The notes under the pieces were generated by a model. That model made no database searches and had not been told where the DNA came from. It was given only the letters and a program-made list of their open reading frames with translations. This document shows positions 1,043 to 51,501 of a stretch of 64,000 nucleotides of DNA, in pieces; positions within the stretch are counted from its first letter, which is position 1, and the number at the start of each line of letters is the position of its first letter. This stretch comes from Gammaproteobacteria bacterium (GTDB lineage: Bacteria; Pseudomonadota; Gammaproteobacteria; Eutrophobiales; Eutrophobiaceae). The position numbers and the translations under genes were made by a program. The stretch spans positions 2,624,001 through 2,688,000 of the forward strand of contig OZ244905.1 of NCBI GenBank assembly GCA_965221695.1, in the 5' to 3' direction.

Positions 1043-1101
1043 TGCGCCGAAAATCTTAACCCGTCAGCCAGATAGCTGTGTCATTATCAATTCCTGACTC
1101 A

Positions 1102-1962: not shown

Positions 1963-1974
1963 AAGCAGTTCCGG

Positions 1975-2235: not shown

Positions 2236-2248
2236 GGGGTGTCTTATC

Positions 2249-4831: not shown

Positions 4832-4847
4832 AGCGGGAATTAATAAG

Positions 4848-4925
4848 AGGTCGCCCCCCGTTTTCACGGGGGCAGGCTCTTCGGGCGACACAGAATTAGA
4901 CTGGATTCCCTCTTTCGAGGGAGTG
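4848..4925. repeat. REP-like palindromic intergenic repeat between convergent genes
   Basis: CCCCCG-TTTTCA-CGGGGG hairpin, then GGCGACACAGAATTAGACTGGATTCCC-TCTTTCGA-GGGAGT. A related copy is at 51585-51625. Confidence 0.6.
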
Positions 4926-5759: not shown

Positions 5760-5804
5760 TGTTCTTTGTTCCTCTGGTTCGCACGCAAGCGCAAGAAACC
5801 CTGC

Positions 5805-9557: not shown

Positions 9558-9570
9558 CGGGAGAGAAATC

Positions 9571-33784: not shown

Positions 33785-34990
33785 ATGTGCGCTGCCGTTG
33801 CTGAAGAAAGACGCTGGGCAAAAACTTATCCCTGGCTGGGGGAAGATCCGGTACCGACCGAACCTTGTATTTCGGAGGACATTTATCACAGGGAGGTGGA
33901 GAAAGTATTCAAAAAAGTCTGGCTGCATGTGGGCCGGGACAATGAATTACCCGAACCGGGCTGCTACAAACTCAAGCGGTTGGAGTTTGCCAGTACCACG
34001 GTGTTATTGATCCGGGGCAAGGACGGCGCGATTCGGGCATTCCATAATACCTGCTCCCATCGAGGAAACACAGTCGTCGTGCCGGAAGGCGAATGGGACA
34101 ACTTTGGGCAGAAAGCGGCCTTCACCTGCCGTTTTCATGCCTGGACCTATAACGACAAGGGCGAGTTAATCGGCGCTCAGGACGAAACCGGTATGCCGCC
34201 GTGTTTCAAAAAGTCAGAAAATGGACTGACTCCCATCCACTGCGATACCTGGGAAGGGTTTATATTTATCAACCTGGATGATAATCCAGCGCAAGGGTTA
34301 CAAGAGTATCTGGGCGCAATGGGCAATCATTTCTCGGGGTTTCCTTACAGCGAAATAGCGCATAATTTTACCTATTACACCTATCTGAACTGCAATTGGA
34401 AGGTGGGGCTGGATGCGTTTGCCGAGGCTTACCATGTGAACACCATCCATGCCGGTTCATTCCCCGGCACGTTTTCGACTGGGTTGCAGATGATTAAACT
34501 ATTGGGCGACCACCGCACCACCGCCGTTTGTTTCAACCCACCCAAGGATGCGCCGCCGGTGGCTGCATTGGCTCAGACCAAGGCGCGCGGATCTTTGGTG
34601 AACAACGTCAGGGAGACGATCCTGCCGCCCAGCTTGAATGACGAAAAACGCGACGATTATGCGTTCGAACTCAGTGTGTTTTTTCCCAACTGGTTGTTGC
34701 ACGTCTCGGAAGGTATCTGGTTCACTCACCAGTTCTGGCCTATCAGTTATGAACGGTGTCTGTGGGAAGGAAAGTATTATGTGATGGAGCCTACCACCAA
34801 CAGTGAAAAATGGGCGCTGGAGCACGCGATGGTATTGCAACGTAATGCCTGGTTGGAAGACACCGCCACAATGGAAGGCACGTTCTATGCGCTCAATTCC
34901 GGCAGCAAAAAATACATGAACCTGCATGATGAAGAAATCCTCGTCAGACATGGTTATCATGTGCTGGAAAAATATCTGAACAACCGCTGA
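33785..34990 (+). CDS. Rieske non-heme iron oxygenase alpha subunit
   Basis: CSHRG...CRFHAW Rieske motif; NWK..DAFAEAYHVNTIH and WLED iron ligands. Confidence 0.93.
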   Translation: MCAAVAEERRWAKTYPWLGEDPVPTEPCISEDIYHREVEKVFKKVWLHVGRDNELPEPGCYKLKRLEFASTTVLLIRGKDGAIRAFHNTCSHRGNTVVVPEGEWDNFGQKAAFTCRFHAWTYNDKGELIGAQDETGMPPCFKKSENGLTPIHCDTWEGFIFINLDDNPAQGLQEYLGAMGNHFSGFPYSEIAHNFTYYTYLNCNWKVGLDAFAEAYHVNTIHAGSFPGTFSTGLQMIKLLGDHRTTAVCFNPPKDAPPVAALAQTKARGSLVNNVRETILPPSLNDEKRDDYAFELSVFFPNWLLHVSEGIWFTHQFWPISYERCLWEGKYYVMEPTTNSEKWALEHAMVLQRNAWLEDTATMEGTFYALNSGSKKYMNLHDEEILVRHGYHVLEKYLNNR

Positions 34991-35000
34991 GGGGGCGGTA

Positions 35001-35342
35001 ATGGCGCAACTGTTACCCGACGGTTTTGCAGAACTGGAAACCTGGGCCAGCGAGTGGGCGAAACCAACACAGAATACCCGCTGGGATAAGCGACTTGCAT
35101 CAACCCGGGGCGATTTAATCGCCTTCTATGAAGCTGTGCTGCCTTATCTGGAGCGCATTCTGCAACATGTCGATGAGTATCCCCTGGGAGAGCTACCGGA
35201 AGCCTCCGCAAGACTGTTTGACCTGGCCTTGATGCATGCGGAAATTGCGCCCAATGTAGAACTGTATGACGGCGACCCGAACGTGCCCCACAGTTTTGAA
35301 GAAAAACGCTTTATTGCGGTGCATGGGGATGACGAACATTAG
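35001..35342 (+). CDS. Small uncharacterised Rieske-associated protein (paralog of 37791-38141)
   Basis: GAGGGGG RBS; clear paralogy to the second copy (LLP..F..LE, W, FYEA.LP, E.AP..ELYD, VP.SF). Confidence 0.8.
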   Translation: MAQLLPDGFAELETWASEWAKPTQNTRWDKRLASTRGDLIAFYEAVLPYLERILQHVDEYPLGELPEASARLFDLALMHAEIAPNVELYDGDPNVPHSFEEKRFIAVHGDDEH

Positions 35343-35416
35343 AAGGTGAATGACTTGCCTGATTTTGACCGATAATATCAGCAATGCCTTGACTGGCCTG
35401 GAAAGGAGGTTCTGTT

Positions 35417-36544
35417 ATGACCATTAAAGCGGATACATACATCCGAATTGATCGAACGCTGCAACTTGGCGATGAGCCGGAGACGGGGCACAACCGTTGG
35501 CACCCGGATATCCAACCGGCTGCAGAAGTTGATCCGGGGCAGATCATCGGCATGGAAACGCGAGATGCTTTTGACGGACAGTTGAAACCGGAAACCACGG
35601 CGAAAGAGGTTGCCGCCACCAATCTGAACCTGGTGCATCCGTTGACCGGCCCGGTTTATATAAACGGCGCGGAGCCTGGCGATATCCTGGAAATCAACAT
35701 TATGGAAGTGGCGCCGGAGCCGTTTGGTTTCACCGTACAGGTTCCAGGGTTTGGTTTCCTGCGCGATCTGTTTACTGAACCTTATATCGTACATTGGGAT
35801 ATCGCCGACGGCTTTGCCATGTCCGCGGACCTGCCGGGCGTAAAGATACCGGGCGCGCCTTTCATGGGCGTGATGGGTAACGCGCCGTCCCATGAGCTAT
35901 TGGAAGAGACCAACCGGCGGGAAGCAGATTTGCAGGCTCGCGGCGGCATGGTATTGCTGCCGGATACCGCCGATGCCGTGCCCAGAGAGTCGGGTATTGC
36001 CGCCAAGGCTATGCGCACCGTTGCTCCCCATGAAACCGGCGGCAACGTGGATATCAAACAGTTGACTGCCGGCACCACGGTGCGTCTGCCTGTATATACG
36101 CCAGGCGCGCTGTTCTCGGTGGGCGATTCCCACTTCGCTCAGGGAGACAATGAAAGCTGTGGCACCGCAGTCGAGATGAGCGCAACGTTTTACGGTTCGT
36201 TCAAGCTGTTGAAAGGAGAAGCGGCCAGACGCAACATCAAGGATATGCAGTTCTACCGGGATGACTACTTTACTGCGCCGGAAATGGCCGTTCCACAACG
36301 GTTCTTTGCCACGACCGGCCAATCCTGCCGCAAAGATGGCGTGGCGGAAGCAGAGGACGCCACCCTTGCGGCGCGTAACGCCTTGCTGAACATGATTGAA
36401 TATCTGGTGAGCGAGCGGGGTTACAGCGAACAACAGGCTTATGCGATATGCAGTGTCGCAGTAGACCTGAGGATATCGGAAATGGTGGATGTGCCCAATT
36501 TCGTGGTGTCCGCGTTCCTGCCTCTGGATATCTTTACAGAGTAA
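35417..36544 (+). CDS. Acetamidase/formamidase (FmdA/AmdA family)
   Basis: HNRWHPDI, HPLTGPV, GGNVDIK, GDSHFAQGDNE, QAYAICS, VDVPN. Confidence 0.92.
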   Translation: MTIKADTYIRIDRTLQLGDEPETGHNRWHPDIQPAAEVDPGQIIGMETRDAFDGQLKPETTAKEVAATNLNLVHPLTGPVYINGAEPGDILEINIMEVAPEPFGFTVQVPGFGFLRDLFTEPYIVHWDIADGFAMSADLPGVKIPGAPFMGVMGNAPSHELLEETNRREADLQARGGMVLLPDTADAVPRESGIAAKAMRTVAPHETGGNVDIKQLTAGTTVRLPVYTPGALFSVGDSHFAQGDNESCGTAVEMSATFYGSFKLLKGEAARRNIKDMQFYRDDYFTAPEMAVPQRFFATTGQSCRKDGVAEAEDATLAARNALLNMIEYLVSERGYSEQQAYAICSVAVDLRISEMVDVPNFVVSAFLPLDIFTE

Positions 36545-36549
36545 ACGAC

Positions 36550-37785
36550 ATGACAATTGTTGCCGATGAATTAGAACAAGCAATGCCGTTCACCACCCGC
36601 TATCCCGAGTTGGGTACGGGTCCTGTGGATGTCAAGCCGCTGATCGACCCGGAATTGTTTGAACTGGAACGGGAACGTATCTTCAAGCAGGCTTGGTTAT
36701 ATGTTGCGCGGGCCGAGGAGCTGGCAGAACCCGGCGACTACAAACTGCGCCGCCTGGATGTGGCCGATACGTCTGTGATTATCGTTCGTGGGAAAGACGG
36801 GCAGGCGCGGGCTTTCCATAACATCTGCACCCATCGCGGCAACAAGCTCATCCCGGAAGCCGGCGCCCAATCTCTGGGCCATACGGCCACGCATACCTTA
36901 ACTTGCCGATTCCATGCCTGGACGTTCAATACCGATGGCGCCTTGCGCGGGGTCGCCCGTCAGGAGAATTTTGCCGGCCTGGATAAATCCTGCCTGGGCC
37001 TGAAACAGATACACTGCGAAGAATGGGAAGGCTTCATCTTCATTAATCTTGCCGAACAACCGCGGCAAACCCTGATCGATTACCTGGACGGCATGGCGCG
37101 CCACTTTGCCGGGTATCCGTACCATGAAGCGACTGTGCGATTGCGCTATTCGACCGTGCTGAACTGTAACTGGAAAGTCGCCCTGTATGCGTTCTCCGAA
37201 GGCTATCATGTTCCGACCATTCATAAGGGCACATTTCCCAGCCTGGCGACGCTGGAACATACCGAGTTCCGGTGCTTTGGTCCTCACAGCAGCTCAGGTC
37301 TGTACGTCCCCCCTGTGCCCGGACTGGAACCGACGCCCGTGACGGCAAACCTGGGTGGCAGGTTGATAATGTCGGCGCGGCATCGGCCTCATCTAGAAGA
37401 ACTGCCGGATAATATCAACCCGGAGAAGCGACAGGATCTCCAGTTTGAATTTTCCGTATTCTTTCCGAATACTGTATTGCACCTGGGCGCCGGTAACGGT
37501 TATCCGGGCATGGCCTATTTTCATCACCAATTCTGGCCCATTGCGGTGGATAAAACCCTTTGGGAAGGCACAAACTATTTCAGAAAGCCGGAAACCGTCA
37601 GCGAACGTGTGGCGATTGCCCATACCAACGCGCTGCACCGCAATGCCTGGTTGGAAGACACTTCGACCATGGAAGACACCTACCAGGCCCTGCGCTCCGG
37701 CGTCCTGGAAGAAATGGTCTTGATGGATGAAGAACTGATGATCAGGAATACCCACAAACACTGGCACGAGTATATGGGGCGCTGA
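36550..37785 (+). CDS. Rieske non-heme iron oxygenase alpha subunit (paralog of 33785-34990)
   Basis: CTHRG...CRFHAW, NWKVALYAFSEGYHVPTIH, RNAWLED. Start MTIV at 36550. Confidence 0.93.
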   Translation: MTIVADELEQAMPFTTRYPELGTGPVDVKPLIDPELFELERERIFKQAWLYVARAEELAEPGDYKLRRLDVADTSVIIVRGKDGQARAFHNICTHRGNKLIPEAGAQSLGHTATHTLTCRFHAWTFNTDGALRGVARQENFAGLDKSCLGLKQIHCEEWEGFIFINLAEQPRQTLIDYLDGMARHFAGYPYHEATVRLRYSTVLNCNWKVALYAFSEGYHVPTIHKGTFPSLATLEHTEFRCFGPHSSSGLYVPPVPGLEPTPVTANLGGRLIMSARHRPHLEELPDNINPEKRQDLQFEFSVFFPNTVLHLGAGNGYPGMAYFHHQFWPIAVDKTLWEGTNYFRKPETVSERVAIAHTNALHRNAWLEDTSTMEDTYQALRSGVLEEMVLMDEELMIRNTHKHWHEYMGR

Positions 37786-37790
37786 TTGTA

Positions 37791-38141
37791 ATGAGGCCGA
37801 CGACCCTGCTGCCTGAACAATTCTCTGATTTGGAACCTTTTGTCGGAATCTGGGCCTTTCCCACCGAGTTGCAGCGCTCCCAACAACGCTGGGCCGCAAC
37901 CCCGGATGATTACCGGCAGTTCTATGAAGCTATGCTGCCAATGCTGGACGAGATACTGACATACCTCGACCAATTCAAACCGGGTGAAATCCCGTCCTCG
38001 GCCTTGCCTCTATACCACCTGACCCTGGCTTTTGCCGAAACGGCGCCTCACAACGAACTGTATGACTGCAGCAATACAGTCCCAAACAGTTTTGCCGCCC
38101 ACCGGTTCGTGGCCGGACACGGGGAAATCCCGGACCGATAA
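37791..38141 (+). CDS. Small uncharacterised Rieske-associated protein
   Basis: Starts 5 nt after the Rieske stop; paralog of 35001-35342. Confidence 0.8.
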   Translation: MRPTTLLPEQFSDLEPFVGIWAFPTELQRSQQRWAATPDDYRQFYEAMLPMLDEILTYLDQFKPGEIPSSALPLYHLTLAFAETAPHNELYDCSNTVPNSFAAHRFVAGHGEIPDR

Positions 38142-38861: not shown

Positions 38862-40154
38862 ATGACAACAGAGTTACATCGCCTCAGCGCTGTTGAAGCA
38901 GCCAAAGGCATTGCCTCACGCGCATTTACCACGGTGGAGCTGGTGACGGCCTGTCTTGAGCGTATCCATGCAAGAGAAGAACAAGTGGGGGCCTGGGCCT
39001 GGTTGGATCCGGATCAAGCGCTGGCGCAAGCCAGGGCTTGTGATGAACGGCCGCGGAAAACGCCATTGCATGGCGTGCCAATCGCAATTAAAGACATCAT
39101 GAATACGGCCGACATGCCTACTTGTTATGGTTCGGATGTGTATGCCGGGCATTATCCGGATGAGGATGCGACATGTGTCCGCCTGCTGCGAGAGTCCGGC
39201 GCAGTGCTCATGGGAAAAACGGTCACCACCGAATATGCTTATTATGCGCCCGGCAAAACCGCCAATCCCCATGCCTTGGGACATACACCGGGCGGATCCT
39301 CCAGTGGCTCAGCGGCCGCGGTGGCCGATTTTCATGTGCCGTTGGCCCTCGGAACGCAAACCTCGGGGTCGATTATCCGCCCGGCAAGTTATACTGGCAT
39401 TCTCGGCTACAAACCGACTTACGACAGTTATTCTCTAGCCGGTGTCCATCCCCTGGCGCCGGCGCTGGACACGCTGGGATCGTTCAGCCGCTCAGTCGCG
39501 GACTTTGCCCTGTTGCATCAGGCGCTAGCGGATAAGGAAATGGCGCTTCCGGTAGCGCGGCGACCCGCTGCCGTTGCCTTTGTGCGCACGCCGGCCTGGG
39601 CTGCGGCCACGGCGCAAACACAGCTTGCAATAAACAATTTTGTCAGCCAACTAAAGTCCGGCGGCATCAATATTATTGAGCCGGATGAGGACCTGTTGCA
39701 GGGCATCATGGAGGTTCAACAGGATTGCCTCGCCCATGGCGCCAGCCAGTCGCTGGGTCCTATCACGGACAGCCACCCGGATAAAACCAGGCCGCAAACC
39801 CGCGCCCTGGTCGCTGAAGGCCGCCGGGTGGATGAGTCTTTCAGCGACCGGATGGCAGCCGCTATGGTCGCAGGCGAACGCTTTCTCAGCGAGGTCTTTG
39901 CCCGCGCAGAACTGATTATTACGCCCAGCGCGGCGGATGAGGCGCCACCGGGTCTGGACAATACCGGCGACCCGATGTTCAACAGGATCTGGACTTTTTT
40001 GAAGACACCATGCATGAATTTGCCGTTGACAAAAGGCGCGCGCGGTTTGCCCGTTGGCGTACAACTGGTTTGCGCCAAGCGTCAGGACGCGCGTTTGCTG
40101 GCTTTTTCCGCATACTTGCAATCCCTGACAGGGTACACTATCGATCAACCATAG
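38862..40154 (+). CDS. Amidase-signature family amidase
   Basis: PLHGVPIAIKD, TPGGSSSGSAAAVA, GTQTSGSIIRPA. Confidence 0.93.
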   Translation: MTTELHRLSAVEAAKGIASRAFTTVELVTACLERIHAREEQVGAWAWLDPDQALAQARACDERPRKTPLHGVPIAIKDIMNTADMPTCYGSDVYAGHYPDEDATCVRLLRESGAVLMGKTVTTEYAYYAPGKTANPHALGHTPGGSSSGSAAAVADFHVPLALGTQTSGSIIRPASYTGILGYKPTYDSYSLAGVHPLAPALDTLGSFSRSVADFALLHQALADKEMALPVARRPAAVAFVRTPAWAAATAQTQLAINNFVSQLKSGGINIIEPDEDLLQGIMEVQQDCLAHGASQSLGPITDSHPDKTRPQTRALVAEGRRVDESFSDRMAAAMVAGERFLSEVFARAELIITPSAADEAPPGLDNTGDPMFNRIWTFLKTPCMNLPLTKGARGLPVGVQLVCAKRQDARLLAFSAYLQSLTGYTIDQP

Positions 40155-40212: not shown

Positions 40213-40227
40213 ATAATTTTACGGAGA

Positions 40228-41577
40228 GTGGATATGACCACAATGGCGACGAAAGAAGTTCCGTTAAGTCCCGTACAAAAACAGTGGTATGAAACAGCTT
40301 GCAGCAAAATTGACCTGGAGCGGCTGAAGCAGTTGATCTTTGACCTGACTGCAAAACACAGTCCCACCGGCGCCGAACGGGAAGCTTGTGAATTCATGAC
40401 TGACTACCTGAACAGCGTCGGGATCAAGGCCTGTTACCAGCCCATCACGGAGATTTCCGGCAACTGCTACGGTCGGGTAAAAGGATCGGGAGACGGCCCC
40501 ACGCTAATGTTGTATGCGCCTATTGACACCTTGCTGGAAGGCGACCCGGATAAAGACATCCCCCATGCCGGGCCCGAACACCGGGCAGATATGCGCCCGG
40601 AACCCTATATTGACGGCGACCTGGTAATCGGCTTGGGCGCTTCCAACCCGAAATCCATGGTTGCCTTGCTGACCGAAGCCCTGACCTGTGTGGTGGAGGC
40701 TGAGGTTGACCTCAAGGGCGATGTGATCATTGCCACGGCTGGCGGCGGCATGCCCTGGATCGCGCCGGAGCGTAACCATGCCGGCATCAGTAACGGCGTT
40801 AACCACCTGCTGTCCCATGGCGTGACCGCGGATTTCGGCGTGATCTGCAAACCCTGGGATGATATTTACTATGAGCACCCAGGCATGGTGTGGTTCAAGG
40901 TAACCGTATGGGGCACCATGGGTTATGCCGGCATTCCCCGCGGTGTGCCGGGCTTTCGCAGCTCGATCGTCCCCGCGGCAAAGGTGATCCTGGACTTGGA
41001 GGAATGGTTGATTGAATACCCGGACAAACACACCAGCGACCAGGTCAAGCCCCAGGGTTGGATCGCCGCTTTGCGTTGCGGCTGGCCGGACAAACCGGCC
41101 TTCCCCGGCGCGGCAACCGAGATCTGGCTGGATGTGCGCACCAGTCCGCTGCAGAAGGCCGCGGAGGTGGAGCGGGAATTTGACCAGGTAATGAAAGACA
41201 TTGCAGCCAGGCACACTGACGTGGACGCGCAATGGGAAACCATCGTCACCTGCGACGCGTCAGCAACCGACCCGGAGCACTGGGTGGTGCAGTCGGCGCT
41301 GCGCGCCTGGAGTGAAGTGCATGGCGAACCCTATCCCGGCGCCCCGCACATGGCGGGACAGACCGACGCCGCCACCATCAACCGGACTGGTTTCCCACTG
41401 GTGCGTATCGGTTATACCTGGCTGGGCGAAAAAGACATGCCGGCGGAATTCACTGAAGGTCTTGGCGGGATGGGCGTTGCCTGCATCCCCGATTTGGAGA
41501 ATACCATCAAAGAAGCGATCTATACTGTCATCGATTCCTGCACCCGCACTCGTGAAGAAGTCGGGTTGGCGGATTAA
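40228..41577 (+). CDS. M20-fold protein resembling 5-nitroanthranilate aminohydrolase (NaaA), with substituted metal ligands
   Basis: SPTGAE, G.G.GPTLMLYAPIDT, IGLGASNPKS, LKGDVII; overall ArgE/DapE-type layout. Confidence 0.75.
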   Translation: MDMTTMATKEVPLSPVQKQWYETACSKIDLERLKQLIFDLTAKHSPTGAEREACEFMTDYLNSVGIKACYQPITEISGNCYGRVKGSGDGPTLMLYAPIDTLLEGDPDKDIPHAGPEHRADMRPEPYIDGDLVIGLGASNPKSMVALLTEALTCVVEAEVDLKGDVIIATAGGGMPWIAPERNHAGISNGVNHLLSHGVTADFGVICKPWDDIYYEHPGMVWFKVTVWGTMGYAGIPRGVPGFRSSIVPAAKVILDLEEWLIEYPDKHTSDQVKPQGWIAALRCGWPDKPAFPGAATEIWLDVRTSPLQKAAEVEREFDQVMKDIAARHTDVDAQWETIVTCDASATDPEHWVVQSALRAWSEVHGEPYPGAPHMAGQTDAATINRTGFPLVRIGYTWLGEKDMPAEFTEGLGGMGVACIPDLENTIKEAIYTVIDSCTRTREEVGLAD

Positions 41578-41609: not shown

Positions 41610-42047
41610 ATGCCGTTAACTGACCTGCACCATGTCGCATTGAGAACAAGAGACCTTGCAGCCAGCGAACAGTTTTACATGGAGGCGCTAGGCATGAAAA
41701 AAGTGAAGCGACCGGATTTTGATTTTCCTGGAGCCTGGTTACAGATGGGGGAGACCATGTTTCATCTCATGGCCGGGTATGCCGCATTAGGTCCGGATGG
41801 CGAGATATCCCGCGGCAGCGGCGCCGTTGATCACCTGGCAATCCAGGCGCGGGGTTTTGATGAAATGCGCGCCCACTTTGAGAGCCTGGGATTAGAACAC
41901 AAGGAAAACGACATACAGGATTTTGGTATCTGGCAACTGTTCGTCAATGACCCGGATGGCGTCATCATTGAATTGAACTTTGCGCGGGCAGATGAGCCGG
42001 CGGGATCTCAGGGGCCGGGACGAGCGACATTGAGCAAGACGACCTGA
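41610..42047 (+). CDS. VOC/glyoxalase family protein
   Basis: LHHVAL, GAWL, DHLAI, QLFVNDPDGVIIELNF. Confidence 0.88.
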   Translation: MPLTDLHHVALRTRDLAASEQFYMEALGMKKVKRPDFDFPGAWLQMGETMFHLMAGYAALGPDGEISRGSGAVDHLAIQARGFDEMRAHFESLGLEHKENDIQDFGIWQLFVNDPDGVIIELNFARADEPAGSQGPGRATLSKTT

Positions 42048-42368
42048 TCATGCAGGTTTCAGGGTGACGTAGATATACCCGTCGTCGCCCAATCGGGTTT
42101 CATATTTGTCAAGAGGGATAACACAGGGAGGGTCGACCGGGTCTCCAGTCCGGATGTCGAATGATCCTTCGTGAAAAGGGCAGATTATTTCGTCTCCCCT
42201 GATGTCGCCGTCGGACAGGTACGCCTGGCCGTGGGTACAGATGTCGCTGGTGGCAAAATATTCCCCTTCCAGGTTGTAGATGGCCACCGCTGTGTCATCT
42301 TCCAGGTAGAACTGCTTGACAGAGTTGGTCTCGAACTCGGTATGCTTTATGGTTTTTTCTTCCGCCAT
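42048..42368 (-). CDS. Rieske-type [2Fe-2S] ferredoxin (CarAc/BphF-like)
   Basis: ICTHG...ICPFHEGSFDIRTG. Start MAEE at 42368. Confidence 0.92.
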   Translation of the reverse strand: MAEEKTIKHTEFETNSVKQFYLEDDTAVAIYNLEGEYFATSDICTHGQAYLSDGDIRGDEIICPFHEGSFDIRTGDPVDPPCVIPLDKYETRLGDDGYIYVTLKPA

Positions 42369-42369
42369 A

Positions 42370-42984
42370 TTAATTCGACGGGTCATAGGTTTCAAAGCGC
42401 AGAGGCGTGGGCCGTTCGCCGTTCACCACTTCCGGCCAGGCGCAGACTGATACCATCCAGGTAAGGTCCATTTCCGCCCGCAGTTCAATATAGTCTCCTG
42501 CCCTGGTAACGGGTTGGTCGATGAGCCACTCTCCCTCGGGTGTATAGTTGACTGTCATGAAGATATTGAAGCAGGAAACGGATTGCAGGTAGTTCGGGTC
42601 GAACCCGAGCTTGCGGTATTCTTCTTGAATGGTGTCCCGGCAACCGTTGCCACCGGTATTGAGGTACAACCGGCGCGCGGCATTGGAACAAAAACCGCCG
42701 CCGGTATAGTGGTTGGCGGTCTTGTCGCTGGTTATTGTCCACATATCATTCATCAGGTTGCTGCGAATAGTGTCGCCTTCCCGCCAATGATAACGGCCAT
42801 GATGCCAGCTCGTGTATACACAATCCTGGAACTCTGCGGGGTCGCCGTATTTGACTGCGACGAAGTCCGCAACCTGTTGTCCCTCAATATCGATAATTCT
42901 CAGTGATTGTCCTTTCCTGATATGTCCGTGGCTGCCCGTGTGCGGCGGAATCGTTGCTGTTTCGATCAGTTTGGCTTTACTCAT
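42370..42984 (-). CDS. DUF1989 / urea carboxylase-associated family protein
   Basis: GQSLRIIDIEGQQVADF, G.CS...GCRD, FNIFM, AGDYIELRAEMDL..VSVC. Confidence 0.85.
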   Translation of the reverse strand: MSKAKLIETATIPPHTGSHGHIRKGQSLRIIDIEGQQVADFVAVKYGDPAEFQDCVYTSWHHGRYHWREGDTIRSNLMNDMWTITSDKTANHYTGGGFCSNAARRLYLNTGGNGCRDTIQEEYRKLGFDPNYLQSVSCFNIFMTVNYTPEGEWLIDQPVTRAGDYIELRAEMDLTWMVSVCAWPEVVNGERPTPLRFETYDPSN

Positions 42985-43808
42985 TGCTCCTCCAGGTGAA
43001 ATTCCACCACCGCGCCGCCGCTGCCGTAAAGAGGGCCGTAAGCGTGCACTGTGGCGTTACTGAAGCGGCCGCCCATGGCGCCCAGGATAAAGGCGAAGTG
43101 TTTGAATCCCATGTCCACCCGCGCCGCGCCGGCGTAATCGGGACAGGCCTTTGCCAGCGCTTCCGTATCGCCCTGTTCCATCATGGATAGTATCTTCTTG
43201 TTCCATTCATCTTCTGCGGCATCGGCGATTTTGTCTTCGCTGATATCGATGATATGGCGATAGATGGAGCCTGACAGGCCGCCGACGCCGATGACAGCCA
43301 GTTTTCGGCCCAGTTCCGCGGCAGTTTCGGCCGCGACCCGCCCAAGGGATTCGGTCATCTGCCAGTCGTGGTAGACGTTATTGGAAGTGATAGCCAGAGG
43401 TATGACTCCGCCCGGGTTCATGAAATTCGAGGCAACGATGGAGCCGGTGTCCACGGGGAAGTGATCATAGTCAACGCCCTTGGCCTTGATCCCGGCCGCT
43501 GCTGTCTTCTTCAGCGCCAGCTCGGCAAATTCGATATCGATCTTCATGTCGAATGGCAGGTCGCCGTATTCATGCCAGTTCTCGTCTACATGCAGGCCGC
43601 GCAGGACAGGCCGGGTTTGCCATAGCTGGTCGAGCACCGCGATCCACTGGGTGGAATAGATGGCGATCAGGTCCGGCGACGAGGCTACAAGGGCCTTGCC
43701 GGCGGTTTCCATGGCCGTGGCGATATCGCCCCAGGGCGGATTGTCCCGTTGCATGTGAGGAAGCGGGGAACCAGGCACGAGAAATGCGGAGACGACGCTC
43801 ATTGGCAT
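42981..43808 (-). CDS. amnA: 2-aminophenol 1,6-dioxygenase alpha subunit
   Basis: VVSAFLVPGSPLP, YSTQWIAVLDQLW, HVDENW, ARVDMGFKH, GPLYGSG; LigB fold, adjacent to amnB. Confidence 0.92.
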   Translation of the reverse strand: MPMSVVSAFLVPGSPLPHMQRDNPPWGDIATAMETAGKALVASSPDLIAIYSTQWIAVLDQLWQTRPVLRGLHVDENWHEYGDLPFDMKIDIEFAELALKKTAAAGIKAKGVDYDHFPVDTGSIVASNFMNPGGVIPLAITSNNVYHDWQMTESLGRVAAETAAELGRKLAVIGVGGLSGSIYRHIIDISEDKIADAAEDEWNKKILSMMEQGDTEALAKACPDYAGAARVDMGFKHFAFILGAMGGRFSNATVHAYGPLYGSGGAVVEFHLEEQ

Positions 43809-43809
43809 C

Positions 43810-44736
<927 letters not shown>

Positions 44737-44739
44737 TCA

Positions 44740-45162
44740 TTATTCAGGTTTATAGGCAATGGCCTTTATTTCTATCAATAACTGCGGGTGTGGCAACTGA
44801 TGCACGGCGACCGTGGTACGGGCCGGGCCGTGATAGTCGAACACCTCTGCATAGACTTCATTATAGCCCGCAAAATCATTCATGTTGACAAGAAAAGCCG
44901 TAATTTCAGTGAGGTCTGCCAGTGTTGCGTCAAAGCTGGCCAGGATATCGGCGATGTTATCCAATACCGCCCGGGTTTGCGCCCGGATGTCCAGGTCGTA
45001 TGTGCCCATGTCATCCACAACCCGCGCGCCGATGACGGTGTTGTCGGCCTGTCTTGCGCTGGCGCCGGAGATGAAGATGTAATCTCCGGCGCGCCGGGCA
45101 TGGGGATACTTGCCGCGAGGAGTGGCTTTGCTCTCCAATACTTTTGCTTTGCAGCCGGTCAT
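44740..45162 (-). CDS. amnD: 2-aminomuconate deaminase (RidA family)
   Basis: [38 protein letters not shown]; immediately upstream of amnB. Confidence 0.88.
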
Positions 45163-45208
45163 AGTCCGTCTCTGAGTCAAATGGTTGTCAATTCACGCAC
45201 CGGGCGCG

Positions 45209-46474
45209 TCAGTCTCGTCTGAAGTAGCCGCGGGTATGGTCTTTGGTCTGAATGCCGCGCGCATGTTTGCTGGCAAACCGGCGCCACATGGTCAGTTCGA
45301 CATCCGGTTGGAACAGTCGTTCCCGCTGCCAGCCGTCTTCCTCGGCGTAGTACTTATGTAACTGCTCCCTGGCAAAGGCGTCATCCACGGTAAAGCCTTC
45401 CACTGCCGGCACCTCCCACATGATTCTGCCATCCTCACCCAACCAGCGTTCCGCTTCCTCTTCATCGTCGGTATGGATTACGCCGAACTGAAAATAGGTG
45501 TGTGCGTCCTTGTTTTTTGGCGTGTAGAACTCGTAGTGAGTGCACTGGGGCGCGGGGAACGTGGTGACCTTAAGCGAACAAGGCATCCAGAGTCCGACGG
45601 TGCCGAGGCGAATGATATCGGTTAATTGCGCCAGCTCCTCCGGTGACTTGCCTCTTGCGAGAGGCAAAACCAGGTCCTTGCGCCCGCCGTCCCGCAGCGG
45701 TATGGATGCTTCGTGCTTGAATTCCGTTTTCTCCACCTTGCGGGTGAAGCCTTTCGGGCCGTCTTCCCGCTCAACGTAGCGGGTTGTGTCCAGCACCGCT
45801 TCCTTAGTGGAAGTATAACCGTAGGAGGTGTGCATGCCGGCATTGATGCACATCTCGGACCAGTTGTGAATGAACTGGTGGCCGGGGTCGTAACCATTCT
45901 CACAACCCAGCCGCCAGTTGGCATTGATGTCGTAGGGTTCGCCGCAATAGACTACGGCATTATCATCCAGCAGTCCGGGGGCAACATCATAATGCAAGGG
46001 TGGCGGCTCAATATCGCCCACGAAGACGAACACGATGCCTTTGCGTTCCTCAACCGGATACACCTTGGCGCGGCATTTGCCGATCATCTTCGAGTCGGGT
46101 GAACTGAGTATGGTGCGCAGGCTGCCGTCCTCCAGGTCAAAGGTCCAGGTATGATACCAGCAGGTCAATGTCTCCTTCGTATAAAACAGAGGGCGCGCCG
46201 AGAAGCGGATGCCGCGATGAGGGCATCGGTCTTCCAGGGCATAGAGCTTTCCATTCTGGCGAGTGAGCAGGATTTCTTCTCCCAGCAATTCAATCCCTTT
46301 TGCATCGCCCTCACCTAAGTGGCGCGACAACGCCGCCGGATACCAGTAATTGCGAAATCCCCACTCCGCGTCAAGCCATACCTGCCAGGGCTTGCGCGCC
46401 CGCGCCGCTTTCGTCCGGGCTTGTTCCACCTGGTCCTGGGTCTCTTCCAGCAGGGTGCGGGTTATCTCGCTCAT
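45209..46474 (-). CDS. Rieske oxygenase alpha subunit, carbazole 1,9a-dioxygenase (CarAa) / 2-oxoquinoline 8-monooxygenase (OxoO) family
   Basis: GFRNYWYP, DRCPHRG...TCWYH, NWRLGCENGYDPGHQFIH, GFTVDDAFARE. Confidence 0.9.
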   Translation of the reverse strand: MSEITRTLLEETQDQVEQARTKAARARKPWQVWLDAEWGFRNYWYPAALSRHLGEGDAKGIELLGEEILLTRQNGKLYALEDRCPHRGIRFSARPLFYTKETLTCWYHTWTFDLEDGSLRTILSSPDSKMIGKCRAKVYPVEERKGIVFVFVGDIEPPPLHYDVAPGLLDDNAVVYCGEPYDINANWRLGCENGYDPGHQFIHNWSEMCINAGMHTSYGYTSTKEAVLDTTRYVEREDGPKGFTRKVEKTEFKHEASIPLRDGGRKDLVLPLARGKSPEELAQLTDIIRLGTVGLWMPCSLKVTTFPAPQCTHYEFYTPKNKDAHTYFQFGVIHTDDEEEAERWLGEDGRIMWEVPAVEGFTVDDAFAREQLHKYYAEEDGWQRERLFQPDVELTMWRRFASKHARGIQTKDHTRGYFRRD

Positions 46475-46528: not shown

Positions 46529-47395
46529 TCACTTCAGCAGGTACTCGATATGCGCCTTGTTGAACGCTTCCGGTTCTTCCCATTGTGGCCAATGGGCGGA
46601 GTTTTCCAGCACCACCAGTTCACTGTCGGGAATCAGCGCGGCGCCCTGTTCCGCCAGTGGCACAAGCTGTCCCGGGTTGTAACGAGTCCATAATACCAGA
46701 GTGGGGCAGGTCAACTGTTGCAGCAACGCCGGGCTGTACCATTTTTCCTGCTCGACCGGGTCCAGCAACGCGCCGATACTTTGTTCCGCTATCTTTCTTA
46801 TCACCGCGGCGCGGCCTGGTTGCCGGTAGATCCGGTAGCGAACTTCGACGATCTCATCGGTCACGTCCTCGTCGCGGCGCATCAACCAGCGCATGCGCTG
46901 GCGCACTGCTTCCCGGTCCGGCGTGCCGGTGGCTTTGCGGCTGCGCTCCAGCAGATCTCTTAATTCTTCGGCGCCTGCCTCGTCCGGCGGCAGCATCATA
47001 CCGGTATTCATGACGATCTTGTTCACTCGATCCGGATGTTGCAGGGCAAACCAGGAAGCGACCGTTGCGCCCAGCGATTCACCGGATATATGCGCCTTGT
47101 CTGCGCCGATGGCATCAAGGAAATCTTTCATGAAATCCACGTAGCATTGCATATCATAGCTGAGCGCCGGGGCGTCGGTGTAACCGTGACCCACCATGTC
47201 GATGGCATAGACATGAAAGTGTTTTGCATGCGCCTCGATGTTCTTCAGATAGGCCTCCGCGTGGCCGCCGGTGCCGTGCAGCAGTGCCAGGACCGGACCC
47301 TCGCCGGCTTCAATAACGCGTGTCCTGACGTTGCCGGCATTATAATAGCTTTGCTTGAATGCTACTCCCTGCAAGTGATTCCAGATACTTGTCAT
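46529..47395 (-). CDS. Alpha/beta hydrolase, probable meta-cleavage-product hydrolase
   Basis: LHGTGGH, GESLG, AHWPQWEEP. Confidence 0.85.
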   Translation of the reverse strand: MTSIWNHLQGVAFKQSYYNAGNVRTRVIEAGEGPVLALLHGTGGHAEAYLKNIEAHAKHFHVYAIDMVGHGYTDAPALSYDMQCYVDFMKDFLDAIGADKAHISGESLGATVASWFALQHPDRVNKIVMNTGMMLPPDEAGAEELRDLLERSRKATGTPDREAVRQRMRWLMRRDEDVTDEIVEVRYRIYRQPGRAAVIRKIAEQSIGALLDPVEQEKWYSPALLQQLTCPTLVLWTRYNPGQLVPLAEQGAALIPDSELVVLENSAHWPQWEEPEAFNKAHIEYLLK

Positions 47396-47473: not shown

Positions 47474-48466
<993 letters not shown>

Positions 48467-48540: not shown

Positions 48541-49452
48541 TTACCGTTTATGCAGTTCACCGCCAGACGTCAGTTCAGGGGGCGGCACATGTTCATGGCC
48601 CCAGATCTTCGGGGAGTTGTAAAATTTCGGTTCCCAGTCGGCATCATCGATCAGGCGCGCGCCGTGGCCGTACTCGATCCACCAGCCGGAAGGAGAATAA
48701 ATATAAAACGACATCATATGGTCATTGCTATGCCTGCCCAGGGTCAAGGCCAGCGGCACATTGTGTTCGTGCACGATGTCATAGGCGCGCCCGACGTCAT
48801 TCAAGGACAGGCTCTCGAACATGAAATGGCCCAACTCGCCGGGTTTCATGCCGCCAACCGGGTTCATGAAAGCCAGGCTGTGGTGGCGGGGATTGCAATG
48901 CAGGAAGGTTGCCTGAATATCATCCCAGAAGATATGGTCGCTCAGTCGGAAACCCAGGTGGTCTTCGTACCACTTTACCGAGGCCATGCGGTCGGCCGTC
49001 GCCAGCACCAGGTGCCCCATGCCCAGGTCGCCGGTATTGTAGCCCTCCATGCCGCGCTTGGGCGCAAACGGTTTGAAGTCCTGAACCGGCCCGAAAAAGA
49101 TCTCCAGGGGAATCCCATCAGGGCCTTCCACCACGAACAAGTCCATCACCGCGCGCCGCTCGCGCAACTCGGGGCTACCCGGTTCCACCGCAATGCCTTT
49201 GTCGTCCAATTCGCCAGCCAGCCGGTCCAAGTCACCCTGGAACTCCACCTCCCAGCCGATGTATTTCAATTTGTTGTGGTTCGATTTATGCAAAGCCAGC
49301 CTGTGGTGATTATCATCCATGCGGTATTGCCGGGTTGTTTGCCCGCTGTCAGCGCGCCGTTCCAGTCCGTAAACGGTATCCAACAGCTTGTCCCAGGCGT
49401 TAAAGTCCGTCACCTCACAACCGATATAACCAAGACCCTTGATTTTTGACAT
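48541..49452 (-). CDS. Type I extradiol ring-cleavage dioxygenase (BphC/HsaC-like)
   Basis: GMGHLVL, FLHCNPRHHSLA, LGRHSND.MMSFY..SPSG..IEYG. Start MSKI at 49452. Confidence 0.93.
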   Translation of the reverse strand: MSKIKGLGYIGCEVTDFNAWDKLLDTVYGLERRADSGQTTRQYRMDDNHHRLALHKSNHNKLKYIGWEVEFQGDLDRLAGELDDKGIAVEPGSPELRERRAVMDLFVVEGPDGIPLEIFFGPVQDFKPFAPKRGMEGYNTGDLGMGHLVLATADRMASVKWYEDHLGFRLSDHIFWDDIQATFLHCNPRHHSLAFMNPVGGMKPGELGHFMFESLSLNDVGRAYDIVHEHNVPLALTLGRHSNDHMMSFYIYSPSGWWIEYGHGARLIDDADWEPKFYNSPKIWGHEHVPPPELTSGGELHKR

Positions 49453-49485
49453 GCCGCATCTCCTCCTTTCAGTCAATTCTTGTGG

Positions 49486-50211: not shown

Positions 50212-51501
50212 TTATCTCCGGAAATGTCCCCTGGTATGTTTTTCCTCCTGGATGCCGCGGCAATGCTCGCCGGCAAATACCCGCCACATCAGCAGTTCAA
50301 TGTCAAAGCGCGCGGTTTGTTCCTGGTTCCAGCCGTCTTCACTGGCGTAGAACTCATGGATATATTCCCGGGCCTCCGCATCCTGCACGGTAAAGTCATC
50401 GACCACGGGAACTTTCCAGCGCACCTGCCCCAGGTCGCCTTCGGCCCATTCGCTTGCCTGTTCCTGATTTTCCACCCGTCTCCAGCCGCATTGGAAATAG
50501 TAGTGGGAATTGGCATCGCGAGGAACGTAATATTCGTTGTGTACCACACCCGGGAACGGCCACGGATTCACCTTCAGCCCGCAGGGCAGCCATTCGCCGA
50601 CTTCAGTGGTGAACGCGTGCTGGCCCAGGAGCTCTATTTCTTTGGGTGATTGACCTTTGGCGATGGGCAGGATGACATCCGTATCACCAGCGCCGTTGCG
50701 CCCGGGAATTTTTGCGGTCATGGACATATTGGTTTCTGCCGCTAACCGGGTAAATCCCTTGGGCCCGCTCTCCATCAACTCATAAATACTGGTCTCCAGC
50801 ACAGCTTCCTTTTTCGAGACCCAGCCGAAGGTCATGGGTATGCGTGAATTAATGGAAAATTTCGACCAGTTATGAATGTAATGATGGCCCGGGTCATAGC
50901 CGCCTTCGGAACCCAAGCGCCAGTTCGCGTTCACCAAGTAGGGGTCAGCCACGCATATCGCCACATCTTCATCAAAAAAACCGGGGGGCACGTCATGCTC
51001 CAAGGGTGGCGGCGGATTCATATCGCCGACGAAGGTAAAGATCACACCTTTTTCCTCCCGCACCGGGTAACTCTTAATTCCCTTGCGCCCTGCCAGAGAA
51101 GAGTCCGGGTCATTCAACAGGCAGCGGATACGGCCGTCGTCAAGGTTGAAGGTAAAAGCATGATGCCAGCAGGTAATGGTATCGTCCGTGTAACAGACAG
51201 GGCGTTTGGAGAAACGCGTGCCGCGGTGGCTGCAGCGATCCTCTATCGCATACAGACGCCCACCACGGCGCAGGTACAGAATATCCTCTCCCAACAGCTT
51301 GATGGCCTTGTGTTCACCGTTCCTGATATTGCGACTGGCTTCCGTCGGATACCAGTGATTGCGAAAACCCAGTTCCGCCTTGAGCCAATTCTTCCAGGGT
51401 TTTTCTGCTGTGGCAGGGTCGGCCCCCTCAAAATCAAAATCCGGAACATACGCCGCAGTGCGCTTCATCAGGTCCAGCGCGATCTCGTTGAACTTGCTCA
51501 T
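50212..51501 (-). CDS. Second CarAa/OxoO-family Rieske oxygenase alpha subunit
   Basis: LGFRNHWYP, DRCSHRG...TCWHH, NWRLGSEGGYDPGHHYIH, FTVQDAEARE. Confidence 0.9.
   Translation of the reverse strand: MSKFNEIALDLMKRTAAYVPDFDFEGADPATAEKPWKNWLKAELGFRNHWYPTEASRNIRNGEHKAIKLLGEDILYLRRGGRLYAIEDRCSHRGTRFSKRPVCYTDDTITCWHHAFTFNLDDGRIRCLLNDPDSSLAGRKGIKSYPVREEKGVIFTFVGDMNPPPPLEHDVPPGFFDEDVAICVADPYLVNANWRLGSEGGYDPGHHYIHNWSKFSINSRIPMTFGWVSKKEAVLETSIYELMESGPKGFTRLAAETNMSMTAKIPGRNGAGDTDVILPIAKGQSPKEIELLGQHAFTTEVGEWLPCGLKVNPWPFPGVVHNEYYVPRDANSHYYFQCGWRRVENQEQASEWAEGDLGQVRWKVPVVDDFTVQDAEAREYIHEFYASEDGWNQEQTARFDIELLMWRVFAGEHCRGIQEEKHTRGHFRR

Follow-up and report, generated by a model that had tools for sequence, protein, structure and literature searches.

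It is rare for an enzyme to take nitrogen off an aromatic carbon by hydrolysis, and to our knowledge the 5-nitroanthranilate aminohydrolase NaaA is the single solved example; its gene adjoins that of a nitrosalicylate dioxygenase. NaaA is described as a hydrolytic aryl-amine C-N enzyme (PMC10306065; PDB titles). Nitrogen is also released during quinoline degradation, for which the outline in PMC9029321 gives a route from 2-hydroxyquinoline through 2,8-dihydroxyquinoline to 8-hydroxycoumarin and NH4+, and onwards to 2,3-dihydroxyphenylpropionate and meta cleavage; that outline names no enzyme for the nitrogen-releasing step (PMC9029321). A gene, 'hdo', is named for it in a second source, in a passage that gives no evidence for the assignment (PMC11945285). 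Our literature search found no paper that assigns an enzyme to the nitrogen-releasing step of the 8-hydroxycoumarin pathway, and none on the clade of M20-fold proteins without metal ligands that is described here.

The gene considered here, M20L, lies in a window of 64,000 nucleotides (the whole stretch of gammaproteobacterial DNA that was analysed), and its product is an NaaA-like protein that has the M20 fold and none of its canonical metal ligands (Table 1). A sister clade of NaaA that has lost the metal site and is under strong selection would mean either that there is a new route to aryl C-N hydrolysis or that the M20 fold has been put to a new use. Proteins of this clade are currently named 'M20 family metallopeptidase' or 'acetylornithine deacetylase-like' in databases, names that are probably wrong for them. 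The reading frame is open and encodes 449 aa when counted from GTG 40228; judged from the sequence, ATG 40234 appears the likelier true start (447 aa), since it follows the GGAGA at 40223-40227 and agrees with the N-termini of homologs (MTT...).

Table 1. Features in and around the M20L gene, with positions in the window
Feature	Position	Strand	Basis
Rieske alpha (401 aa) and 113-aa protein, formamidase, Rieske alpha (445 aa) and 116-aa protein; upstream, same strand as M20L	33785-38141	+	sequence match
Amidase-signature amidase, malonamidase-E2-like, directly upstream of M20L	38862-40154	+	sequence match
Putative ribosome-binding site GGAGA, 6 nt 5' of ATG 40234	40223-40227	+	sequence reading
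M20L: M20-fold, NaaA-like, canonical metal ligands absent	40228-41577	+	open ORF; sequence and structure matches
YAPIDT, residues 96-101; Pro98 at the M20 His-ligand position	40513-40530	+	alignment
GASNPK, residues 137-142; Asn140 at the bridging-Asp position	40636-40653	+	alignment
AGGGMP, residues 171-176; Gly174 and Pro176 opposite Glu-x-Glu/Asp (NaaA-like) or the Glu pair (DapE/ArgE-type)	40738-40755	+	alignment
ICKP, residues 206-209; clade-invariant Lys208 at the Glu-ligand position	40843-40854	+	alignment
YEHPG; Glu216 and His/Glu217, clade-specific polar pair at the hinge into the lid domain	40870-40884	+	alignment, model
GLGGMG, at the site where DapE/ArgE-type M20 proteins have their C-terminal His-ligand motif	41458-41475	+	alignment
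VOC/glyoxalase-fold protein, 145 aa, glyoxalase-I-like, directly downstream	41610-42047	+	best PDB E 4.3e-06
Rieske-type ferredoxin	42048-42395	-	sequence match
2-aminophenol 1,6-dioxygenase-type LigB enzyme (alpha 42981-43808, beta 43810-44715)	42981-44715	-	E 6.5e-166
RidA/YjgF-family protein; candidate enamine/imine (2-aminomuconate-type) deaminase	44740-45180	-	sequence match
Homotrimeric Rieske oxygenase, CarAa-like	45209-46474	-	292 bits to CarAa, 224 bits to OxoO
Alpha/beta hydrolase, meta-cleavage-product hydrolase type (HsaD/BphD-like)	46529-47395	-	below curated cut-offs
BphC-type two-domain extradiol dioxygenase, about 7 kb from M20L	48541-49476	-	sequence match
Second homotrimeric Rieske oxygenase, CarAa-like	50212-51501	-	sequence match

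An M20 fold without M20 metal ligands

The AlphaFold model of M20L (pLDDT 94.6, pTM 0.93) has the two-domain M20 architecture, in which a dimerisation/lid domain is inserted into an alpha/beta catalytic domain, and its top structural match is NaaA, both by Foldseek (E 1.1e-34, TM 0.81/0.86) and by VIA-align (Z 41.9, rmsd 2.4 A over 405 residues, 23% identity; the next entry has Z 34.9). Every match from either program is an M20 structure, and the matches cover residues 17-445. NaaA is also the sole match in a PDB sequence search at E <= 10 (two distinct sequences, E 4.8e-19 and 1.6e-18), and a profile of the clade aligns with it at E 1.5e-48, giving the same mapping of ligands as the single-sequence alignment. 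The original prediction of an M20 fold with NaaA as its closest relative is thereby borne out, and the motifs on which it was based (YAPIDT, GASNPK, AGGG and ICKP) are all located in the open reading frame; the blocks it listed as common to both proteins are present as SPTGAE, NPK, LKGDV, SHG, GMVWFKVTV and LEEW, and are visible in the NaaA alignment.

In that alignment the His, Glu and Glu of NaaA stand opposite Pro98, Gly174 and Lys208 of M20L. When M20L is compared with two DapE/ArgE-type proteins of the same genome, which carry HTD, DMK, DE(E), GEP and H-x-N-E, the His ligand aligns with Pro98, the bridging Asp with Asn140, the Glu pair with Gly173/174, the Glu ligand with Lys208 and the C-terminal His motif with GLGGMG. 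None of the residues of the co-catalytic M20 metal site is kept, nor is the general-base Glu, and the mononuclear-site residues of the NaaA-like group (His of H-x-D, Glu of G-E-x-E/D and Glu of E-P/A) are absent as well, so that the claim that the canonical ligands had gone is confirmed by both the NaaA profile and the DapE/ArgE-type alignment, and the claim that the C-terminal His had gone by the latter. M20L does have an Asn at the bridging-Asp position, followed by the N-x-K lysine, and these residues, Asn140 and Lys142, are conserved in ligand-less and ligand-keeping groups alike; Arg289 of NaaA aligns with Ala291.

So complete a loss, of all three NaaA-type ligands and the catalytic-base Glu, favours the idea that M20L is a non-catalytic pseudoenzyme, whose M20 shell would be kept to bind a ligand, or to scaffold or chaperone the oxygenase or the amidase, and in which Lys208 would do no more than fill the empty metal site to hold the fold. 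The low family scores of the protein count in the same direction: it does not reach the Pfam gathering cut-offs of PF01546 (14.6 bits against 24.6) or PF07687 (14.6 against 21), and when the whole genome was searched with PF01546, eight places were marked, the M20L gene not being among them. A search of the ESM Atlas with M20L returned generic M20-labelled clusters only.

Single origin and selection

We found 905 homologs of M20L, and a set of 84 full-length proteins (83 representatives at 50% identity and the query) divides into 42 that lack the ligands and 42 that keep them. A tree of 92 rows, with seven canonical M20 proteins from the window's genome as outgroup, places all 42 ligand-less proteins in a single clade (SH-aLRT 99), nested inside the ligand-keeping NaaA-like proteins; this clade arose once within the NaaA-like branch of the M20 fold. 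Its 42 members have Pro98 in 34 cases, Asp100 in all, Asn140 and Pro141 in 41 each, Lys142 in 40, no Glu at 174 or 176, Lys208 in all, Glu216 in 35, Glu at position 217 in 36, Tyr233 in 41 and Arg304 in 40, while the ligand-keeping proteins have His98 (42/42), Glu174 (41/42), Glu176 (33/42) and Glu208 (40/42, with Asp in the other two). Conservation is stricter in a second set, 85 full-length relatives from fetched loci: Pro98 is present in 84, and Asp100, Asn140, Pro141, Lys142, Gly173, Gly174, Met175, Pro176, Lys208, Glu216, Tyr233, Asp302, Arg304, Asp380 and Arg393 in all 85. The suggestion, made from the sequence of M20L, that a lysine has taken the place of the metal fits the invariance of Lys208. 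We searched 401 genomes of the phylum, and the window's own genome was the only one with a match at E <= 1e-30. Proteins of 787-2245 aa included no longer fused form at E <= 1e-20; the sole fused form seen is P0069, a protein of 735 aa with a PF11723 domain N-terminal of its M20L part.

Ligand loss, taken alone, might be read as the decay of an M20/NaaA-like gene copy, in which case close homologs would be expected to keep the ligands. The substitutions are instead fixed across the clade under purifying selection (dN/dS of 0.045-0.116 between M20L and 12 relatives, with no internal stops), and decay, to which we attach almost no probability, is ruled out by these observations and by the intact frame; the 905 homologs and the presence of a ligand-keeping paralog elsewhere in the genome also stand against it. 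The best explanation is a functional gene whose product belongs to a distinct clade. The same data weigh against a non-catalytic role, which we regard as unlikely: 15 positions in the vicinity of the old active site, all polar or glycine, do not vary among the 85 relatives, several of these residues being new to the clade, dN/dS is low (0.05-0.12), and the substrate-side residues common to NaaA-like enzymes (Lys142, Asp302, Arg304 and Asp380) are retained.

The conserved residues might alternatively build a new metal site, from Asp100, Glu216, Glu/His217 and, where present, His102 for example, so that M20L would still be a metalloenzyme performing ordinary M20-type amide hydrolysis of a lactam or N-acyl group. 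Asp100 (42/42 clade representatives) and the clade-specific acidic pair (Glu216 in 35/42, Glu217 in 36/42) would suit such a site, as would His102, found in 64 of 85 relatives as PIDTH, and the metal of NaaA is said to be labile and to load together with the substrate. We nonetheless consider this improbable, since position 102 is Leu in the window protein and 20 others, the invariant Lys208 at the old ligand position would repel a cation, and no triad of His, Asp or Glu is invariant across the wider clade.

Gene neighbourhood and proposed function

The amidase encoded directly upstream has Lys77, Ser146-Ser148 and Ser170 among the invariant positions of its alignment, which we take to be the Lys/cis-Ser/Ser triad. 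When NCBIfam models were run on the neighbours, the cut-off was reached only by a thioredoxin reductase, and a scan for promoters and terminators gave counts no higher than in shuffled sequence. Both Rieske oxygenases of the window are nearer CarAa than OxoO; the CarAa-like type of the second is found 2-3 kb from M20L in close relatives, and M20L and its subclade of 58-92% identity have CarAa-like oxygenases nearby.

More distant relatives, 45-54% identical to the window protein, are linked to OxoO. The oxygenase of the L078 cassette matches OxoO (1Z01, 2-oxoquinoline 8-monooxygenase) over its full length (E 4.5e-220, 734 bits), and oxygenases 67-97% identical to it occur at 16 further loci. 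A tblastn survey of 78 metagenome loci included 20 that are well flanked (at least 5 kb upstream and at least 3 kb downstream), and these hold a homotrimeric Rieske oxygenase in 18 cases, a meta-cleavage-type alpha/beta hydrolase in 17, a BphC-type dioxygenase in 15, an amidase in 13 and a reductase in 11; two are without the Rieske oxygenase. On plasmid p1 of Cupriavidus necator C39 the order is OxoO-like oxygenase, reductase, M20L and amidase, the last being a partial match (174 residues, 37% to the L078 amidase). At this locus and several in soil, the oxygenase-reductase-M20L-amidase group was found with no adjoining ring-cleavage gene. The amidase also bears on the idea of a partner subunit, which gains from the close spacing of the two genes (-4 to +12 nt from amidase stop to M20L start in 26 of 41 adjacent pairs, with starts from a crude ORF caller) and loses from the seven of 20 well-flanked loci that have no amidase; a prediction of the amidase-M20L complex (score 0.01, mark 0.32) speaks neither for nor against it.

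Our preferred reading, held tentatively and with a little less than even confidence, is that M20L is a C-N hydrolase, probably metal-independent, which together with the amidase strips nitrogen from hydroxylated quinolinone-type lactams. In this clade the mononuclear site of NaaA (His, Glu, Glu) was exchanged as a set for Pro98, Gly174/Pro176 and Lys208, with Glu216, Glu/His217, Tyr233 and Arg393 as new conserved polar residues, and M20L would act after the homotrimeric Rieske hydroxylase and before aromatic ring cleavage, on lactam-type N-heteroaromatics. For the OxoO-linked subclade the reaction may be that of 2,8-dihydroxyquinoline (8-hydroxy-2-quinolinone) to 8-hydroxycoumarin or 2,3-dihydroxycinnamate and ammonium. 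In the order we prefer, M20L would hydrolyse the aryl C-N bond by NaaA-type chemistry, with Lys and Glu as acid-base groups, and the upstream amidase would then cleave the resulting primary amide; in a close alternative the amidase would open the lactam and M20L deaminate the aminophenol. The substrate in the window is probably different, a related N-aromatic, since M20L belongs there to a subclade tied to CarAa-like and not OxoO-like oxygenases. The linkage to OxoO provides two candidate genes, M20L and the amidase, for the conversion of 2,8-dihydroxyquinoline to 8-hydroxycoumarin and ammonium.

The roles proposed in the original prediction, those of an aryl-amine deaminase or lactam hydrolase, gain some support from context, in that relatives lie between genes of OxoO/OxoR type and ring-cleavage genes. 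Its further proposal, that deamination of an aminophenol would supply a catechol to the neighbouring extradiol dioxygenase, is not supported as it was put: the adjacent VOC protein appears glyoxalase-I-like and not dioxygenase-like, the BphC-type enzyme is encoded at a distance, and the nearby LigB pair is of a type that uses aminophenols directly, which would make prior deamination unnecessary.

Several considerations count against our preferred reading. An aryl C-N bond that lacks activation is difficult to hydrolyse, NaaA reportedly uses a metal and a nitro-activated ring, and M20L has neither a Glu at the catalytic-base position nor the Arg289 of NaaA. Among the 20 well-flanked loci, seven are without an amidase and two without a Rieske oxygenase. 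Because the window oxygenases are nearer CarAa, the quinolinone reading depends on the relatives of 45-54% identity; moreover, the 2-aminophenol 1,6-dioxygenase and RidA could free nitrogen after ring cleavage, making an aryl deaminase unneeded, and if the CarAa-like oxygenase performs angular dioxygenation the aryl C-N bond could break oxidatively, so that the amidase would suffice. Alternatively, M20L might carry out a step of the same pathway other than C-N hydrolysis, such as tautomerisation or isomerisation, lactonisation or hydration of a side chain, or the handling of an enamine ring-fission product. An invariant Lys, Glu and Tyr may equally be typical of Schiff-base or acid-base isomerases, and the window's amidase, AmnAB and RidA could explain all nitrogen release, but the nearest characterised relative, NaaA, is a C-N hydrolase, and the Cupriavidus and soil groups noted above count against another step as well; we judge another step to be as improbable as a new metal site. 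A more specific form of the hydrolytic reading is rather doubtful: that on a metal-free M20 scaffold water splits an aryl C-N bond in a lactam of the 8-hydroxy-2-quinolinone type through acid-base catalysis by Lys208, Glu216 and Tyr233, and not by metal-assisted nucleophilic aromatic substitution, which would make M20L the missing nitrogen-removal enzyme of the 8-hydroxycoumarin quinoline pathway and of related marine pathways.

Comparison with known systems

NaaA (5NAA-A) of Bradyrhizobium sp. JS329 (PDB 5K8M-5K8P) has the same two-domain M20 fold as M20L, and in both proteins Asn replaces the bridging Asp, and the N-x-K lysine, Asp302/Arg304 (D-x-R) and a T-D-A loop are present. They differ at the metal site, where NaaA keeps His, Glu-x-Asp and Glu, and its crystals contain Mn2+ or Zn2+ (PDB titles), whereas M20L has Pro98, Gly174/Pro176 and Lys208; they differ also in gene context. 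The M20 deacylases of DapE/ArgE type (TIGR01910; PDB 3PFO, 7UOI, 5VO3) resemble M20L in overall fold (Z 33-35), with a weak signal from TIGR01910 (E 2e-17; 63 bits against a cut-off of 217.6), but M20L has no ligand residue at any of the five positions, which read H-x-D, D, E(E), E and H in the two same-genome proteins of this type. With the OxoO/OxoR system (2-oxo-1,2-dihydroquinoline 8-monooxygenase) the likeness is one of gene content: relatives of M20L share a string of genes with OxoO homologs, an FNR-type reductase, a BphC-type dioxygenase, a meta-cleavage-type hydrolase and an amidase, and the window differs from these sets in that its own oxygenases are CarAa-like.

Fold and ligand positions

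The frame encoding M20L, the M20-fold, NaaA-like protein considered here, is open and gives 449 residues counted from a GTG; we favour a start at ATG 40234, giving 447 residues, since it follows a GGAGA (40223-40227) and agrees with the N-termini of homologs. All the motifs quoted in the original prediction are found in the translation (YAPIDT at residues 96-101, GASNPK at 137-142, AGGG at 171-174 and ICKP at 206-209), as are the blocks SPTGAE, LKGDV, SHG, GMVWFKVTV and LEEW. The likeness to NaaA, the 5-nitroanthranilate aminohydrolase of Bradyrhizobium sp. JS329, had been put forward in that prediction; the blocks it named are visible when M20L is aligned with the PDB sequence, and the sequence observation stands as a whole. 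No curated Pfam or NCBIfam model covers the protein: PF01546 reaches 14.6 bits (cut-off 24.6), M20_dimer 14.6 (cut-off 21) and the best NCBIfam model, TIGR01910, 63 (cut-off 217.6). Source records name the homologs M20 metallopeptidase, ArgE/DapE-like or hypothetical, and NaaA is the sole match among all PDB chain sequences (two distinct sequences, E 4.8e-19 and 1.6e-18).

Structure prediction, proposed earlier as a check, returned NaaA as the best match of the AlphaFold2 model (pLDDT 94.6, pTM 0.93; 40-row alignment A2), both with Foldseek against the PDB (5K8O, E 1.1e-34, TM 0.81/0.86, 23% identity) and with VIA-align (5K8P, Z 41.9, rmsd 2.4 A over 405 aligned residues), where 3PFO and DapE 7UOI each reached Z 34.9. 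A profile of the M20L clade, aligned to NaaA at E 1.5e-48, places Pro98 on the His of SHLDT, Asn140-Pro-Lys142 on Asn-Cys-Lys, Gly174 and Pro176 on the Glu and Asp of CGEID, Lys208 on the Glu of VAEA and Ala291 on Arg289. The five classical ligands were mapped by reading the same columns in two DapE/ArgE-type M20 proteins of the window's genome (H-T-D, D-M-K, D-E(E), G-E-P, H-x-N-E); the joint alignment included seven canonical M20 proteins, all from that genome, and in it GLGGMG of M20L occupies the place of the C-terminal His motif.

Conservation and selection across the clade

A word-indexed search found 905 homologs (54-89% identity among the 120 matches listed); when 1.84 billion representatives were searched exhaustively, 989 proteins passed E <= 0.001 and 103 of them E <= 1e-30. 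The best 150 of the 989 were listed, and the 83 of 400-480 residues, together with the query, formed a set of 84 that tree and alignment columns divide into 42 ligand-less proteins and 42 others, the rows being sorted by eye from the alignment and by clade membership. A quick IQ-TREE analysis (LG+G4, 92 rows, rooted on the seven canonical M20 proteins) places all ligand-less proteins in a single clade of 42 rows (SH-aLRT 99), which branches inside the ligand-keeping proteins. Asp302, Arg304 and Asp380 are retained in both groups. The basal member of the clade, P0153, has mixed motifs (HLDT with its His kept, NPK, GGIHK and KP) and may be an evolutionary intermediate.

Residues at selected positions in the 84-protein set
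Position	Ligand-less clade (n=42)	Rest (n=42)
98	Pro 34, His 3	His 42
100	Asp 42	Asp 42
140	Asn 41	Asn 42
141	Pro 41	Met 38
142	Lys 40	Lys 42
174	Gly 36, Glu 0	Glu 41
176	Pro 41, Glu 0	Glu 33
208	Lys 42	Glu 40, Asp 2
216	Glu 35	Gly 16, Ala 14
217	Glu 36, His 4	His 12, variable
233	Tyr 41	His 18, Tyr 16
393	Arg 35, Lys 5	Lys 8, variable

The fetched loci gave translations of 85 full-length relatives. Pro98 occurs 84 times among them, and Asp100, Asn140, Pro141, Lys142, Gly173, Gly174, Met175, Pro176, Lys208, Glu216, Tyr233, Asp302, Arg304, Asp380 and Arg393 occur in every sequence. In comparisons with 12 relatives of 84-92% identity, dN/dS is 0.045-0.116. The alternative that close homologs keep the ligands and that this copy is a decaying gene is ruled out by these observations; M20L belongs to a conserved ligand-less clade, in which the ligand swap extends throughout and is under selection. 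The window's genome also encodes a ligand-keeping NaaA-like paralog of 424 residues, 29% identical to M20L, with HLDT, NMK, GEIEK and GEP. One cluster of six member sequences, represented by the 735-residue P0069, carries a homotrimeric Rieske oxygenase catalytic domain (PF11723) in frame and N-terminal to the M20L part; this may reflect a genuine gene fusion, or an artefact of assembly or gene calling, and a search of longer proteins found no fusion longer than P0069.

Gene neighbourhood

Genes around M20L, and its ligand-keeping paralog
Feature	Position	Strand	Remark
Partial molybdenum-hydroxylase subunit	2-1042		
Molybdenum-hydroxylase FAD subunit	6268-7140		
Molybdenum-hydroxylase large subunit	7137-9557		
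Isochorismatase-family hydrolase	9571-10206		
Alpha/beta hydrolase and TonB receptor	within 2-10206		
Rieske alpha (401 aa) and 113-aa protein, formamidase, Rieske alpha (445 aa) and 116-aa protein	33785-38141	+	upstream of M20L
SRPBCC protein	between second Rieske alpha pair and amidase	opposite M20L	
Amidase-signature amidase	directly upstream of M20L	as M20L	malonamidase-E2-like (E 6.9e-62)
M20L	40228-41577	+	
VOC protein (145 aa)	directly downstream of M20L	as M20L	best PDB matches glyoxalase I (E 4.3e-06)
Rieske ferredoxin	downstream of M20L	opposite M20L	
DUF1989 protein	42370-42984	-	related to urea-amidolyase-associated proteins
LigB-type pair and RidA gene	42981-45180	-	
CarAa-like oxygenase		opposite M20L	E 5.7e-86 to CarAa, 1.9e-65 to OxoO
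Meta-cleavage-type hydrolase		opposite M20L	
Thioredoxin-reductase-type flavoprotein	47474-48427	-	TIGR01292 399.5 (cut-off 343.45)
BphC-type dioxygenase; flavodoxin-like reductase		opposite M20L	
Second CarAa-like oxygenase		opposite M20L	
CoxG-like protein		opposite M20L	
Ligand-keeping paralog	L018:1366-2640	-	305-aa ORF adjoins
Ligand-keeping paralog, window's genome	G000:C1:832143-833273		

The amidase residues Lys77, Ser146-Ser148 and Ser170, which we take to be the catalytic triad, are invariant in 17 sequences. The beta subunit of the LigB pair matches 2-aminophenol/2-amino-5-chlorophenol 1,6-dioxygenase at E 6.5e-166, and by sequence the pair with RidA looks like an aminophenol meta-cleavage module of the amnBA-amnD type; it lies at most six genes from M20L in the window and is absent near M20L in all 16 close relatives mapped. 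The thioredoxin-reductase-type flavoprotein sits within the catabolic cluster, its protein cluster occurring in 11 sources including the window; instead of a housekeeping TrxB it may be the protein that supplies the oxygenase with electrons. The small proteins that follow the Rieske alpha subunits have no Pfam match and form one cluster (23 members, 15 sources including the window), and the DUF1989 protein is kept beside the cluster in 10 sources, again including the window. Gene kinds found at the start of the window also border M20L cassettes at other loci.

The amidase-M20L pair, with CarAa-like oxygenases nearby (CarAa being a homotrimeric Rieske oxygenase reference), is retained in 16 close relatives, 84-92% identical, from records labelled Gammaproteobacteria MAGs. 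A metagenome scan kept 80 loci of 211 confirmed, and clustering of their ORFs, with clusters named by Pfam, revealed a recurrent string of alpha/beta hydrolase, homotrimeric Rieske oxygenase, Fer2-FAD-NAD reductase, BphC-type dioxygenase, amidase and M20L, frequently flanked by Zn-ADH-family reductases, TonB receptors, MarR regulators, molybdenum hydroxylase subunits and Asp/Glu-racemase-family proteins. By tblastn at 78 loci, and at the 20 with at least 5 kb upstream and at least 3 kb downstream, respectively, the Rieske oxygenase was detected at 37 and 18, the reductase at 37 and 11, the amidase at 34 and 13, BphC at 29 and 15 and the alpha/beta hydrolase at 28 and 17; among the well-flanked loci the oxygenase was missing at two (L039 and L089) and the amidase at seven.

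The oxygenase of one metagenome locus, L078, scores 734 bits (E 4.5e-220) against OxoO (1Z01), the 2-oxoquinoline 8-monooxygenase of Pseudomonas putida 86, in an alignment of residues 2-438 with 2-443. Where the oxygenase is 67-100% identical to that of L078, M20L shares 45-52% identity with the window copy; oxygenases of the window's two CarAa-like types accompany M20L proteins that share 58-92% with it. The single plasmid record matching M20L, Cupriavidus necator C39 p1, carries an OxoO-like oxygenase, reductase, M20L (50.7% identical to the window's) and amidase in that order, then MarR on the opposite strand. Among 401 sampled genomes of the phylum, no M20L match at E <= 1e-30 was found beyond the window's own genome.

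A candidate role and its relation to known enzymes

In the part of PMC9029321 drawn on here, the 8-hydroxycoumarin pathway leads from 2-hydroxyquinoline through 2,8-dihydroxyquinoline to 8-hydroxycoumarin with NH4+, and on through 2,3-dihydroxyphenylpropionate to 2-hydroxy-6-oxonona-2,4-diene-1,9-dioate, and the enzyme of the nitrogen-releasing step is there left unnamed. The M20L cassette accounts for hydroxylation (OxoO with its reductase), for meta cleavage (the dioxygenase) and for C-C hydrolysis (the hydrolase); the amidase and M20L are the two proteins that remain for the step between hydroxylation and meta cleavage. NaaA is described, in the portion of PMC10306065 consulted, as an aryl C-N bond hydrolase, and from this we propose that M20L would cleave the aryl C-N bond and the amidase hydrolyse the amide, in either order. 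Hydroxylation at C8 might give access to a tautomer that is no longer aromatic and that takes up water at its enamide or imine carbon, with Lys208, Glu216, Glu/His217 and Tyr233 serving as putative acid-base catalysts and an anionic group held by Lys142 and Arg304, presumably as in NaaA-like enzymes.

The original prediction of a metal-independent aryl-amine deaminase or lactam hydrolase is upheld in part: the NaaA-like M20 fold and the loss of ligands stand, and function and metal independence are inferred. Our tentative explanation, held at somewhat less than even confidence, is a probably metal-independent C-N hydrolase acting with the amidase on hydroxylated quinolinone-type lactams. For the window's own M20L the partner oxygenases are CarAa-like, and a 2-aminophenol dioxygenase and RidA lie close by; the substrate there may be another one, and an aryl deaminase may not be required at all. 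A literature search confined to papers outside subscription found no description of a ligand-less M20 clade. The genes for M20L and the amidase are two candidates, open to testing, for a pathway step that has long lacked an assignment. Compared with the M20 family, M20L has the fold but scores below the Pfam cut-off and lacks the ligands; NaaA is its nearest and closest characterised relative, yet M20L has neither the ligands of NaaA nor its Arg289.
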